Assembly (NCBI GenBank): GCA_016235455.1
Contig: JACRKZ010000029.1
Span: forward strand, 4,183 to 68,182
DNA length: 64,000 bases
Reading direction: 5' to 3'
Source of the DNA: Armatimonadota bacterium
Lineage (GTDB): Bacteria; Armatimonadota; UBA10988
The position numbers were made by a program, and so were the translations under genes. Shown here piece after piece: positions 60,799 to 63,600 of the stretch (positions within the stretch are counted from its first letter, which is position 1; each line of letters opens with the position of its first letter). A model generated the notes under the pieces. It was not told where the DNA came from. It saw only the letters and a program-made list of their open reading frames with translations, and did not search any database.

Positions 60799-61152
60799 TC
60801 AGCGCCTGGCGCCACCGCCCGGCCCGAACTTCCGATGCATCTCGCCTGCCTGCGCCGCATCGTCGCCGGCCGCCCAGCGGATCAGCGCGACACCGATCAG
60901 CAGCACCGGCACGGTGATCATCAGGAAGATCAGCCCCACTGGCGGCACCATGAGCGCCGTGAGCGAGCACATTCCGCCGACGCCGGCCAGCATCACTCCC
61001 AGCAGCCCGGCCGCGGCTTGGAGCAGCACCCACCACACACCGCGGCGGCGTGGGCTGCGCCCGCAGTGGCTGCAGTCCAGCACGCCCGGCGGCAGCGGCG
61101 CGCCGCAGTTGGCGCAGACCAGGCTCGCGTCGTCGTTCACCGCACACCTCAC
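60799..61152 (-). CDS. zinc-ribbon + 2TM small membrane protein, array copy 6
   Basis: MRCAVNDDASLVCANCGAPLPPGVLDCSHCGRSPRRRG followed by two hydrophobic helices. ATGA overlap with the upstream copy. Confidence 0.6.
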   Translation of the reverse strand: MRCAVNDDASLVCANCGAPLPPGVLDCSHCGRSPRRRGVWWVLLQAAAGLLGVMLAGVGGMCSLTALMVPPVGLIFLMITVPVLLIGVALIRWAAGDDAAQAGEMHRKFGPGGGARR

Positions 61153-61517
61153 TTACTGTCGTCGCGCCGACCGAAGGTCATGCGCGTCGTGCCGTCGGGC
61201 TTGGTGGGGCGGGTGCGTGGTTGGTAGAGTCCCGCGCCCCAGCTGAGCAGCAGCAGTCCGGACGCCGCTACCGGGACCGCGATCACGAGCACCACCAAGG
61301 TATCGGGCAGACCCACCAGCCCGGTCAGTGAACAGGCAGCGCCGGACAAGGCCAGCGGCGCGCCCAGGAAGAGCGCGAGGCCGCGCAAGATGGCCGCGCC
61401 GACGTCCATGGCGCGCGGCTGCCGGCCGCAGTGGCCGCAAGCCAACTGGCCCGCTGGCAAGGGCACCCCGCAGTTGCCGCAGACCACGTTCGCGTCGTCG
61501 TTCACCGCACACCTCAC
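61149..61517 (-). CDS. zinc-ribbon + 2TM small membrane protein, array copy 5
   Basis: MRCAVNDDANVVCGNCGVPLPAGQLACGHCGRQPR, 2 TM, C-terminal DGTTRMTFGRRDD. ATGA overlap at 61514-61517. Confidence 0.6.
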   Translation of the reverse strand: MRCAVNDDANVVCGNCGVPLPAGQLACGHCGRQPRAMDVGAAILRGLALFLGAPLALSGAACSLTGLVGLPDTLVVLVIAVPVAASGLLLLSWGAGLYQPRTRPTKPDGTTRMTFGRRDDSK

Positions 61518-61870
61518 TGGCCGTCACCGCGCCGACCGAAGGTCATGCGCGTCGTCCCGTCGCGCGCCGTTCGATTGGCTCGGTTGTTGTCGCGATCCAC
61601 ACCCCGGATCACGAGCATAATGCCAAACGCTAGCGGCAGAAGCGCCATGGCCACCATGGGCAGACTGTCGTCCATCACGACCATCGCGGTAGCGGCGCAG
61701 GTGGTGCCGAACAGCGTCATCATCAGCCCGACCAGGATGGCCAAGCCTCGTATGATGGCTGAGCCGACGTCCAGGCCGCGCGGCTGCCGCCCGCAGTGCG
61801 CGCACGCCAGCGTGCCCGCCGGCAGCGGCTGGCCGCAGTTGCCACAGACCACACTCGCGTCGTCGCCCAT
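61514..61870 (-). CDS. zinc-ribbon + 2TM small membrane protein, array copy 4
   Basis: MGDDASVVCGNCGQPLPAGTLACAHCGRQPR, 2 TM, C-terminal DGTTRMTFGRRGD. An alternative GTG start at 61882 would give a GTGA overlap with the upstream stop. The ORF's extension to 62008 was rejected. Confidence 0.55.
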   Translation of the reverse strand: MGDDASVVCGNCGQPLPAGTLACAHCGRQPRGLDVGSAIIRGLAILVGLMMTLFGTTCAATAMVVMDDSLPMVAMALLPLAFGIMLVIRGVDRDNNRANRTARDGTTRMTFGRRGDGQ

Positions 61871-61878
61871 CGCTCGTC

Positions 61879-62211
61879 TCACCGACCGCGCGGGAACGCG
61901 CCGCGCCGAGTTCCGTCCCGCCGTGCCGCGTAGGCGCGCCACACCCAGCGCAGCAGCAGCAGGCCCAGCAGCAGCGTCGGCACCGAGAAGAACCAGATGA
62001 TCTGCCACAACTCATCACCAATGGAGCCAATGGTGCAGGCGCCGCCAATGCCGGTGATGGCCAGGGCGAACAACAGGGCAATCACCTCGCCGGCCGACAT
62101 CCACAGCCGCGGGTGGCGACCCGTCGCCGCGCCGCACGCCGGGCAGCCGCGCGCCGCGGCTGGCAGTTCGCCGCCGCAGTTGGGACACTTGTCGCCAGGC
62201 TCGGTACTCAT
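61879..62211 (-). CDS. zinc-ribbon + 2TM small membrane protein, array copy 3
   Basis: MSTEPGDKCPNCGGELPAAARGCPACGAATGRHPR, then 2 TM. ATGA overlap at 62208-62211. Confidence 0.6.
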   Translation of the reverse strand: MSTEPGDKCPNCGGELPAAARGCPACGAATGRHPRLWMSAGEVIALLFALAITGIGGACTIGSIGDELWQIIWFFSVPTLLLGLLLLRWVWRAYAARRDGTRRGAFPRGR

Positions 62212-62567
62212 CCGCGGTCTCCCCTGCGCACCCCGCCAAACCTTCTACGCCGCTGGCCCTGCCATTGCGCGTCGACCAGCCCGCCCCGCGGCCAGGGCCA
62301 GACCAGCATCAGCCCCACGCCGACGGCACTGACCACGGCACTACCCACCAGCGCGCCGCGCGCGCGCCACTGCTCTTCGGGCGTGCCGACCAACAGGTAG
62401 ATCAGGCTCGATCCCACCAGCATGGCCGCCAACGCCATCTGTGCAGCCAGCGACAGCACCATGGCCCGCCGTCTGCCGCGTGGCGCACGCGCGCCACAGG
62501 CGCGGCAGCGCCGCGTAACGCTGTCCATGGGTCCACCGCAGTAGTAGCAGGTCGTTCGAGCCGCCAC
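62208..62567 (-). CDS. zinc-ribbon + 2TM small membrane protein, array copy 2 (GTG start)
   Basis: (V)AARTTCYYCGGPMDSVTRRCRACGARAPRG, then 2 TM. GTG start 2 nt after the upstream stop, with RBS GGAGATAG. The ORF's 5' extension to 62840 overlaps copy 1 and was rejected. Confidence 0.55.
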   Translation of the reverse strand: MAARTTCYYCGGPMDSVTRRCRACGARAPRGRRRAMVLSLAAQMALAAMLVGSSLIYLLVGTPEEQWRARGALVGSAVVSAVGVGLMLVWPWPRGGLVDAQWQGQRRRRFGGVRRGDRG

Positions 62568-62569
62568 GG

Positions 62570-62872
62570 CTATCTCCGTCGCCGCGCCAACATCACCGCA
62601 CCGCTGACGATCAGTCCGGACACGGCCAGCATGATCAGGCCGATGTTCATCGACGCGTGATCGCTGCGGTCCTGCATGCCTATCACCGTGCACGTGCCGC
62701 CCAGCGCGCCCAGGGCCAGCGCCGGCAGCAACAGGAAGAACGCTGCCACCAGCCGCCAGGCTCGACCGCGGTCGGGCGGGCGCGCGGCCCAGCCGCAGTG
62801 CGCGCACCGCGCCGCGCCGGCAGACAGGCCGGCGCCGCACTCCGGGCAGGACTCAGACGGTGGCGCATCCAT
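62570..62872 (-). CDS. zinc-ribbon + 2TM small membrane protein, array copy 1
   Basis: MDAPPSESCPECGAGLSAGAARCAHCGWAARPPDRGR, then 2 TM. Lies 20 nt downstream of lgt, with RBS GGAG. Confidence 0.6.
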   Translation of the reverse strand: MDAPPSESCPECGAGLSAGAARCAHCGWAARPPDRGRAWRLVAAFFLLLPALALGALGGTCTVIGMQDRSDHASMNIGLIMLAVSGLIVSGAVMLARRRR

Positions 62873-62892
62873 GGCACACTCCTACTCTCACT

Positions 62893-63600
62893 CTAGCACC
62901 CCGGCGACGGCGTGACACATCGTCGCGACAGCCACTGCCAGACCACGGCCGCCGCCACCAGGGCGAGCGCCGCCTGCTGGCCCAGCGACAGCCAGGCGGC
63001 CGGCTGATCTTGGGCGCGCACACTCTCGATGACGCAGCGGCCCAGTCCAAACAACACCAAGTATGCCCTGAACAGGTCGCCTTCACACGGCACGCGGTCG
63101 CGCCAGGCGCGCAGCAGCGCATAGGTGATCGCCGCCCAGGCCGCCGAGTAGAGCTGCGTGGGATGCCGCCAGGCCTCGTGTTGCCAGACGGCCCACGGCA
63201 CGGTGGTCACCGCGCCATGGCAGCAGCCATTGACGAAGCAGCCCAGCCGGCCGACGGCCTCGCCCGCGGGCAGCGCCAAAGCCCACAAGTCGCCGGTGGA
63301 GCGGCGAATGCCCAGGCGACGCTTGGTCAGCGCCACGCACAGCCAACCGCCGGCCACGCCGGCCAGGATGGTGCGGCCGCCCAGGCGCGGGTCGAGGAAG
63401 CTGGCCGGATGGCTGAGGAGAAACTGCCGCTCGACCAGCAGCCAATGCGCCAACCGCGCGATGAGCAGACCGCCCACAAAGCCCCACAGCGCCACCACGG
63501 CCATGCCGTTGGTGGCCAGCCGGCGGCGCCGGGCCTCGTGGACCAGGACCACACCGGCCACGCCGTAACCCAGGGCCGTCAGGAAGAGGCCGAGCATCAT
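62893..63600 (-). CDS. lgt: prolipoprotein diacylglyceryl transferase family protein (Lgt-like, divergent signature)
   Basis: HPTQLYS block and the Lgt-signature region GRLGCFVNGCCHG (the canonical form is GRIGNFINGELWG, so the Glu is replaced). Multi-TM. Start at MMLGLF with ATGA overlap with the upstream gene. The ORF is listed to 63699. Confidence 0.6.
   Translation of the reverse strand: MMLGLFLTALGYGVAGVVLVHEARRRRLATNGMAVVALWGFVGGLLIARLAHWLLVERQFLLSHPASFLDPRLGGRTILAGVAGGWLCVALTKRRLGIRRSTGDLWALALPAGEAVGRLGCFVNGCCHGAVTTVPWAVWQHEAWRHPTQLYSAAWAAITYALLRAWRDRVPCEGDLFRAYLVLFGLGRCVIESVRAQDQPAAWLSLGQQAALALVAAAVVWQWLSRRCVTPSPGC

Follow-up and report, generated by a model that had tools for sequence, protein, structure and literature searches.

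What role do six small membrane proteins play that are encoded one directly after the other behind an Lgt-like gene? The question is raised by a stretch of 64,000 nucleotides from an Armatimonadota bacterium (GenBank assembly GCA_016235455.1, contig JACRKZ010000029.1, positions 4,183 to 68,182), referred to here as the window. The original prediction for this DNA had described an lgt gene followed by six paralogous mini-proteins, each with a zinc ribbon and two transmembrane (TM) helices, and had found no known system to which they belong. We confirmed the six co-directional mini-genes on the minus strand (c1 to c6) and found that their linkage to the Lgt-like gene is conserved across at least three phyla. 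We propose a module that would consist of a cytoplasmic radical S-adenosylmethionine (SAM) enzyme of the Tes/GDGT-MAS type, a divergent membrane transferase of the Lgt family and 0-8 hypervariable hairpin proteins, with the six mini-genes as its variable 'cargo' part. The module is undescribed in the family libraries and the literature searched, and it probably modifies membrane lipids or small membrane proteins. Its genes in the window are as follows (TM1, first TM helix).

63597-64000, minus strand: 3' end (C-terminal ~130 codons) of a radical SAM gene of the Tes/GDGT-MAS/TrsS family, cut by the window end
62893-63600, minus strand: paralogue of the Lgt family (PF01790), 235 aa, with seven TM helices predicted and no head domain
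62570-62872, minus strand: c1, 100 aa, zinc ribbon and two TM helices, TM1 motif LGGTC
62208-62567, minus strand: c2, 119 aa with GTG start, zinc ribbon and two TM helices, TM1 cysteine absent
61879-62211, minus strand: c3, 110 aa, zinc ribbon and two TM helices, TM1 motif IGGAC
61514-61870, minus strand: c4, 118 aa, zinc ribbon and two TM helices, TM1 motif FGTTC, tail DGTTRMTFGRRGDGQ
61149-61505, minus strand: c5, 118 aa from GTG 61505, TM1 motif LSGAAC, tail DGTTRMTFGRRDDSK
60799-61140, minus strand: c6, 113 aa from GTG 61140, TM1 motif VGGMC, tail HRKFGPGGGARR

The mini-proteins are 100-119 aa long and identical to the NCBI proteins HZB16_04850-04875. The ribbon pattern CxxC-(10 aa)-CxxCG is present in all six copies, and its four cysteines are invariant. 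Two hydrophobic helices per copy were detected by Kyte-Doolittle analysis, and the AlphaFold2 model of c3 (pLDDT 74.7) agrees with this topology, as it consists of a zinc knuckle followed by a helical hairpin (helices 35-63 and 69-98). The GC content at third codon positions (GC3) of c1-c6 (0.81-0.89) is like that of the Lgt-like gene (0.88), and a GGAG/GAGG-like site lies 6-8 nt before the start of every mini-gene, so that c1-c6 look like real genes. As had been described, the array begins 20 nt past the stop of the Lgt-like gene, with the ATG of c1; a gap of 2 nt separates c1 from c2, c2 and c3 overlap by 4 nt (ATGA), and c3 and c4 lie 8 nt apart. The GTGA overlaps and the MRCAVNDDA N-terminus that had been assigned to c5 and c6 are possible (an alternative start at 61517 adds MRCA to c5, and that of c6 lies at 61152), but the second GTG (MNDDA...) is better supported by a GAGG 6 nt upstream and by the NCBI annotation. 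The second-GTG starts give 8-nt gaps at these junctions too. The operon ends with c6, whose stop codon is 2 nt away from that of a convergent YbjN-like gene.

c4 and c5 have the tail DGTTRMTFGRR in common, as predicted, and the tail of c2 (WPWPRGGLV...RRRFGG) is conserved, c2 being the best conserved of all copies. A lineage-specific C-terminal motif, [RK]xxF[GP], is common to c2-c6 and to copies m2-m7 of the related locus L086, which are otherwise divergent; examples are RRRRFGG, RGAFPRG, TRMTFGRR and HRKFGPG (e.g., 62208-62260, 61514-61560 and 61149-61195). On sequence grounds, it is a candidate docking motif of the cytoplasmic tail.

Searches of Pfam, NCBIfam, PADLOC, PHROG and PDB gave nothing characterised beyond a generic zinc ribbon, in line with the statement that the array matches no known system. 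On PF13240, c6 scored 26.6 bits (cut-off 25) and c1, c3, c4 and c5 19-21 bits, while c2 matched DZR only (14 bits). Proteins of PF13240 and PF12773 likewise have an N-terminal CxxC...CxxC ribbon, but these entries cover the 20-25-aa ribbon alone, whereas the hairpin, the TM1 cysteine motif and the linkage belong to no family. A profile built from the six paralogues recovered only itself and two c2 orthologues from 5.8 billion proteins, and a profile of 53 family sequences gave 6 matches, essentially itself. An exhaustive hidden Markov model (HMM) search of 1.84 billion representatives returned 2864 matches, of which the top ones were long multi-zinc-ribbon proteins aligned over the ribbon only; about 14 of the top 150 were true full-length relatives. 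Foldseek found nothing significant for the c3 model in PDB or BFVD (best E in BFVD 0.56). Neither an Rfam family nor a tRNA was found in the region.

Two known types of small membrane protein were considered and rejected. Anti-phage or phage proteins (immunity, holin) had no PADLOC, PHROG-function or viral-structure match: PADLOC returned 0 matches, and the PHROG matches were confined to weak ones of unknown function for c1 and c3, covering the ribbon (E 1.6e-5 or weaker). The poly-immunity reading offered by the original prediction is therefore unsupported, the array having no phage context either. Anti-sigma factors of the zf-HC2 type were discarded since no such Pfam match was obtained and no sigma gene lies nearby. 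The array has no sigma factor, toxin or phage gene next to it.

To analyze the linkage, 80 loci were fetched from one-genome-per-species contigs by means of the Lgt-like alignment. They come from Abditibacteriaceae, Fimbriimonadaceae, Chthonomonas, Capsulimonadaceae and Eremiobacterota/Vulcanimicrobiota, and include a few metagenome-assembled genomes (MAGs) that are labelled Xenobia or Obscuribacterales or are unclassified. Mini-genes were sought mechanically, as open reading frames (ORFs) with CxxC...CxxC followed by TM segments, in the 72 loci with at least 1.5 kb of downstream sequence. In 55 of these, 1-8 zinc-ribbon-plus-TM genes are chained directly 3' of the Lgt-like gene on the same strand, 130 genes altogether; 27 loci have one copy, 10 have two, 6 have three and 8 have four, and the upper range is made up of one locus with six, two with seven and one with eight. 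As a background, only 11 matches to this architecture were found in 1.80 Mb of flanking strand sequence. The mini-protein family has a mean column identity of 21%, with less than 60% identity for 93 of 98 sampled members. The array is not a local oddity: its linkage is conserved in at least three phyla despite near-total sequence turnover. Among the options that had been listed for the mini-proteins, that of Lgt-associated factors is strongly backed by this comparison.

Some loci counted as having no mini-gene hold degenerate versions, such as half a ribbon in L027 and ribbon-less tandem copies in L037. Architectural variants were seen at the following places.

L037:2462-4145: tandem hairpins without a ribbon, downstream of the Lgt-like gene
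L063/L065/L068/L070: variant locus
L074:8622-8948 and L079:6740-7048: variant locus

Variants in Eremiobacterota include ribbon proteins with 3-4 TM helices ending ...LGLFSICDLFALS, and other Eremiobacterota loci have ribbon-less, cysteine-bearing proteins ending ...GGTALCN. In other genomes, ~110-130 nt typically separate the first mini-gene from the stop of the Lgt-like gene, compared with 20 nt in the window.

The gene that had been called lgt is not a canonical lgt. It matches PF01790 with 120.6 bits (gathering cut-off 24.9, E 8.5e-35) but reaches only 75.4 bits on NCBIfam TIGR00544 (cut-off 118.9), and it is far below the cut-off of every other lgt model as well. Its AlphaFold2 model (pLDDT 82.5, pTM 0.80) has the seven-TM body fold of Lgt, and the sole significant PDB match is E. 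coli Lgt 5azb (E 2.6e-6, TM-score 0.71). Residues were mapped by profile alignment to 5azb and by an alignment of 24 sequences (the query and 23 homologues). A 2026 survey names the residues that E. coli Lgt absolutely requires: Y26, H103, R143, N146, G154 and R239 (PMC13251419). The Lgt-like protein keeps R143, G154 and R239 and has invariant cysteines at the positions of N146, E151 and L152 (GEAVGRxGCxxxxCCxG). H103 is replaced by a hydrophobic residue (Leu/Ile), and Y26 by Thr8 in a manual register of the N-termini, as Y26 is N-terminal to the aligned region. The cysteine triad (C121, C126 and C127, in the signature motif GRLGCFVNGCCHG) is invariant in the 24 aligned homologues and in 69/69 related loci, which leaves no variation to compare with the presence of mini-genes. 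The slot of the head domain between TM4 and TM5 has ~13 residues compared to ~40 in E. coli (profile 131-145 versus chain 157-196), and in its place the model contains two short strands at 138-145 only. Because of the sub-cut-off equivalog score, the replaced residues and the missing head domain, the most fitting description of the gene is that of a divergent paralogue in the Lgt family, with a putative transferase activity.

The protein thus has the fold and family of E. coli Lgt (5AZB/5AZC) with three of its required residues, but is set apart by the Cys-Cys-Cys replacement and the lack of a head domain. N146C/E151C variants occur in distant Lgts (PMC13251419): N146 is changed to cysteine, with a second cysteine nearby, in Leptospira interrogans Lgt and in MSMEG_5408 of M. 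smegmatis. The former, which is that organism's working Lgt, is partly functional in E. coli, where it gives partial complementation, and the latter is presumed to have low activity (PMC13251419); the Armatimonadota protein was compared with them by sequence only. Unlike here, no cysteine-triad subfamily, radical SAM partner or mini-proteins are described for these two proteins in that survey. No second PF01790-like gene is present within the 64-kb window. Two PF01790 genes are listed for Fimbriimonas ginsengisoli, also a member of the Armatimonadota, in Table S2 of the survey (PMC13251419), as expected if one of them is the paralogue.

The start of the Lgt-like gene overlaps the stop of an upstream radical SAM gene (ATGA), to which it is translationally coupled and which had been missed. 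The fragment of this gene in the window gave weak matches to the C-termini of NCBIfam TrsS and Tes (E 6e-4 and 4e-3), and a full-length orthologue from L010 matches positions 63992-63624 at 5e-32 (tblastn). The orthologues are ~500 aa long, contain Zn_ribbon_HMPTM and Radical_SAM, and align end to end with PDB 7TOL (tetraether synthase GDGT-MAS, 2e-39). Like 7TOL, they have a rubredoxin-like N-terminal ribbon and the C-terminal motif FMDAxxF...CC[VI]H, which the window fragment also contains. Their scores are far under the equivalog cut-offs for TrsS (226/490 bits) and Tes (205/450 bits), and SPASM maturase models reach only 26-45 bits, on the radical SAM core. By these alignments of its orthologues, the gene, of which the window has the C-terminal 130 aa, is assigned to the Tes/GDGT-MAS family, below the equivalog cut-offs. 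Bacterial Tes homologues are uncharacterised (PMC8941075; 2026 review PMC13459092) and have not been reported with an Lgt-family partner; our literature search found no paper that ties a Tes-like radical SAM enzyme to an Lgt-family protein, and none on zinc-ribbon lipobox mini-proteins or on the module.

In 71/80 loci, the radical SAM gene shares the strand of the Lgt-like gene; Armatimonadota have it upstream and Eremiobacterota downstream. A fourth small gene, here called 'FCK', closes the cluster in 62/80 loci (e.g., L010:8376-8516, L022:7633-7773 and L074:9016-9156). It encodes a protein of ~85-100 aa with two TM helices and the motifs AFTFCK and TRCxxKxP, which has no Pfam or NCBIfam family match. 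FCK is absent from the window and from its closest relatives (L006-L008, L086); in the module as we propose it, FCK would be the closing component in most lineages other than that of the window. All-versus-all clustering of the ORFs of the 80 loci, which gave mostly shadow-frame noise, yielded no further widely conserved partner beyond the radical SAM, mini- and FCK genes.

How the array changes between close relatives can be seen on related metagenome contigs. The order Lgt-like gene, c1, c2, c3 is kept in L003 and L004. Orthologues of c1 (L003, L004, L086) are 49-51% identical, those of c2 (P0005, P0007, L086 m2) 65-70%, those of c3 40-41%, and that of c6 (P0190/L086 m4) 52%, while the Lgt-like protein is 75-82% identical on related contigs. 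In L086:1-2598 (ENA ERZ724089, a 4-kb contig), at least seven mini-genes precede the same convergent YbjN gene (70% identical), compared to six in the window. L086 m1-m3 are the counterparts of c1-c3 and m4 is that of c6, whereas m5-m7 have no counterpart in the window and c4 and c5 none in L086. The head of the array is therefore stable, while its tail turns over. Among the proteins from the representative search, P0216 (207 aa) and P0232 (205 aa) naturally combine two ribbon-plus-hairpin units in a single chain. On the plus strand, the flank at 57048-60796 contains a 1033-aa ORF and then a 205-aa YbjN-domain gene (60179-60796) that converges on the end of the array; a faint GH106 match is on record for the identical protein of the 1033-aa ORF in L005, and the flank with the YbjN-domain gene is conserved in L086.

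The one conserved residue outside the ribbon is a cysteine in TM1, which the earlier description of conserved features had missed. In 129 of 136 mini-proteins, a cysteine follows an uncharged stretch with a median length of 19 aa; family-wide, G stands at -2 in 60% and A, G, S or T at -1 in 64%. The core of a PROSITE PS51257-type lipobox, {DERK}(6)-[LIVMFWSTAG](2)-[LIVMFYSTAGCQ]-[AGS]-C, is matched by 77/136 proteins compared with 18.4 +/- 3.9 in composition-preserving shuffles, and the classical pattern [LVI][ASTVI][GAS]C fits only 1/129. The region before TM1 has a net charge of +1.2, the loop one of -0.5 and the C-terminal tail one of +2.6, indicating that the mini-proteins are hairpins with both termini inside (N-in/C-in), the ribbon and the basic tail being cytoplasmic. 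In the AlphaFold2 hairpin model of c3, helix 1 continues for 4 residues past Cys59. The model thus predicts a position of the TM1 cysteine in the outer-leaflet part of the helix, about one helical turn below its periplasmic end.

The geometry and the sequence context of this cysteine match those of a lipobox cysteine presented to Lgt: it follows a positive stretch, ~19 uncharged residues and small residues, and lies near the outer leaflet. We therefore put forward, tentatively and with somewhat less than even confidence, that the Lgt paralogue uses the mini-proteins as its private acceptor substrates or as protein-borne carriers of lipid. The paralogue would attach a glycerolipid to the TM1 cysteine, using R143 and R239, two retained arginines of Lgt that bind the phosphate of phosphatidylglycerol, and the same lipid would also be acted on by the radical SAM enzyme, a partner with relatives that couple lipid tails. 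From gene order, conserved linkage, architecture, topology signals, cysteine motif and enzyme families, we infer lipidation of the cysteine, its catalysis by the Lgt-like enzyme and a part of the radical SAM enzyme in it. Private substrates or lipid carriers would best fit the combination of a conserved operonic module, a hairpin with a cytoplasmic ribbon, a single conserved lipobox-like cysteine at the depth of the Lgt active site, and variable copy number with fast divergence. The divergence of c1 and c3 (40-51% identity, where the Lgt-like protein has 75-82%) argues for a substrate-like mode of evolution. A more specific version, in which the Lgt-derived transferase loads the hairpin on its intramembrane cysteine and the hairpin then serves as carrier or final product for a Tes-type coupling of lipid tails, we regard as quite unlikely.

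The nearest conceptual precedent is provided by the Skillet-1 Lipocone enzymes, which are predicted to lipidate neighbouring 'GS' lipobox-like proteins (PMC12419801). There, too, a dedicated membrane lipid-transferase stands beside private substrates with a non-canonical lipobox-like motif. However, Skillet-1 belongs to an unrelated superfamily, the acceptor is a serine instead of a cysteine, and neither ribbon/hairpin substrates nor a radical SAM partner occur there.

Several observations weigh against the acceptor proposal, which comes from sequence and models. Within the window, the lipobox core is matched by c3 and c5 only; the residue at -1 is T in c1 and c4 and M in c6, and c2 has no TM1 cysteine, yet is the best conserved copy. 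In Eremiobacterota, the cysteine is held in a different context (..SICD, ..ALCN), and L022, L067 and L082 keep the radical SAM, Lgt-like and FCK genes with no mini-gene at the locus. The TM1 cysteine lies 55-70 residues from the N-terminus (~54-60 in c1-c6), behind a folded zinc ribbon, and this position does not agree with what defines a lipoprotein signal peptide, a cleavable sequence with the cysteine within about 15-35 residues of the N-terminus. Unlike in a preprolipoprotein, the 'signal peptide' would be internal, G dominates at -2, and the cysteine is followed by just a short loop, the second TM helix and a cytoplasmic tail, not by a mature extracytoplasmic domain. Being membrane-anchored already and having almost no periplasmic part, the mini-proteins would receive a lipid anchor without obvious purpose. 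Finally, Y26, H103 and N146 are replaced in the Lgt-like enzyme, and its chemistry may differ.

The main rival, which we consider possible though on balance rather unlikely, holds that the mini-proteins are unmodified small membrane subunits that tether or regulate the soluble radical SAM enzyme at the Lgt-like protein. The complex would then act purely on membrane lipids, for example by tail-to-tail coupling that yields membrane-spanning lipids, and the TM1 cysteine would contact the cysteine triad, be it structurally, through a metal or in a redox role. A cytoplasmic zinc ribbon and a basic tail suit protein-protein contact, and the radical SAM enzyme has a rubredoxin-like ribbon of its own. 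The tail motif [RK]xxF[GP] in c2-c6 and L086 m2-m7, the strong conservation of the cysteine-less c2, the three invariant cysteines of the Lgt-like protein at about the membrane depth of the mini-protein cysteine, and the action of the radical SAM relatives on lipids instead of proteins all speak for such subunits. However, subunits are usually single-copy and conserved, whereas here 0-8 hypervariable copies turn over between close relatives, and L034 and L059 retain mini-genes beside the Lgt-like gene but have no radical SAM gene in the vicinity.

It is also conceivable, but unlikely, that the mini-proteins are unrelated passengers with a function of their own (stress, signalling, immunity- or holin-like) which merely have the transcript in common with the Lgt-like gene. 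Zinc-ribbon proteins with TM helices are common and functionally diverse, the exhaustive HMM search returned mainly generic ones, and c1 and c3 have the weak PHROG matches mentioned above. However, immediate same-strand linkage holds in at least three phyla despite the sequence turnover, and the lack of PADLOC matches, of significant viral or PDB fold matches and of adjacent sigma, toxin or phage genes does not point to such functions.

Tandem hypervariable small genes beside a radical SAM enzyme are typical of loci for ribosomally synthesized and post-translationally modified peptides (RiPPs). The mini-proteins could accordingly be precursor-like substrates of the radical SAM enzyme, which would form, for example, a thioether or C-S link from the TM1 cysteine to a lipid tail or to another residue, with the Lgt-like protein as lipid donor or holder; Tes chemistry indeed runs via a lipid-carbon-to-sulfur bond on an Fe-S cluster (PMC13459092). 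We find this improbable: the enzyme belongs to the Tes/GDGT-MAS lipid family and not to the SPASM/RRE type, the conserved cysteine is near the periplasmic leaflet and far from a cytoplasmic enzyme, and the products are 100-120-aa membrane proteins without leader/core organisation. Moreover, the association of the mini-genes is tighter with the Lgt-like gene than with the radical SAM gene. A RiPP precursor array with a radical SAM maturase was also tried as a known class and rejected, the array consisting of 100-119-aa membrane proteins and the enzyme matching lipid-enzyme models best.

The tail of the array contains repeated DNA.

60950-61888: tandem DNA repeat of three units (c6, c5, c4) with a 365-nt period, 64-71% identical over 209 nt

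The near-identical junction DNA that had been reported was confirmed by a perfect repeat of 27 nt, located at 61126-61152 and 61491-61517 (0 expected by chance). The ribbon-coding 5' ends of c4-c6 and the 3' tails of c4 and c5 are near-identical, and the TM-coding middle has diverged. Recent duplication, which had been proposed, applies only to c4-c6, as a tandem triplication; c1, c2, c3 and c6 have positional orthologues in related organisms. In Logan short-read assemblies of the window's population, the contigs are interrupted precisely at the c4/c5/c6 repeats: L001 and L002 stop within c4, and L005 begins at c5. One residue of c1 (S to G) distinguishes L001 from the window. That a repeat misassembly expanded one gene, as the near-identical junctions of c4-c6 and the contig breaks there might suggest, is extremely improbable, because the paralogues c1-c6 are only 29-53% identical at the protein level, independent metagenomes contain separate orthologues of c1-c3 and c6 in unchanged order, and the independent short-read assemblies L001, L002 and L005 reproduce c1-c4 and c5-c6.

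What follows from the module depends in part on its mechanism. Whatever this is, bacterial Tes homologues gain a conserved genetic context, consisting of an Lgt-family partner, the mini-proteins and FCK. These homologues are the leading candidates for making membrane-spanning lipids in bacteria, with candidate status only (PMC8941075). The context supplies sets of genes for co-expression for cultured hosts such as Abditibacterium utsteinense and Fimbriimonas ginsengisoli, and the mini-proteins constitute a family that is barely detected by sequence searches and easily found by architecture and context. If the mini-proteins are lipidated, Lgt chemistry would reach past N-terminal signal peptides to an internal, intramembrane cysteine of polytopic mini-proteins, and a private enzyme-substrate system with fast-evolving substrates would be defined. 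Armatimonadota and Eremiobacterota are common in soils and peats, and to our knowledge the producers of the branched tetraether lipids found there remain unidentified. If hairpins do act as lipid carriers or final products, this machinery would be of a new kind, by which bacteria of the Armatimonadota and Eremiobacterota would form membrane-spanning lipids or conjugates of lipid and protein.

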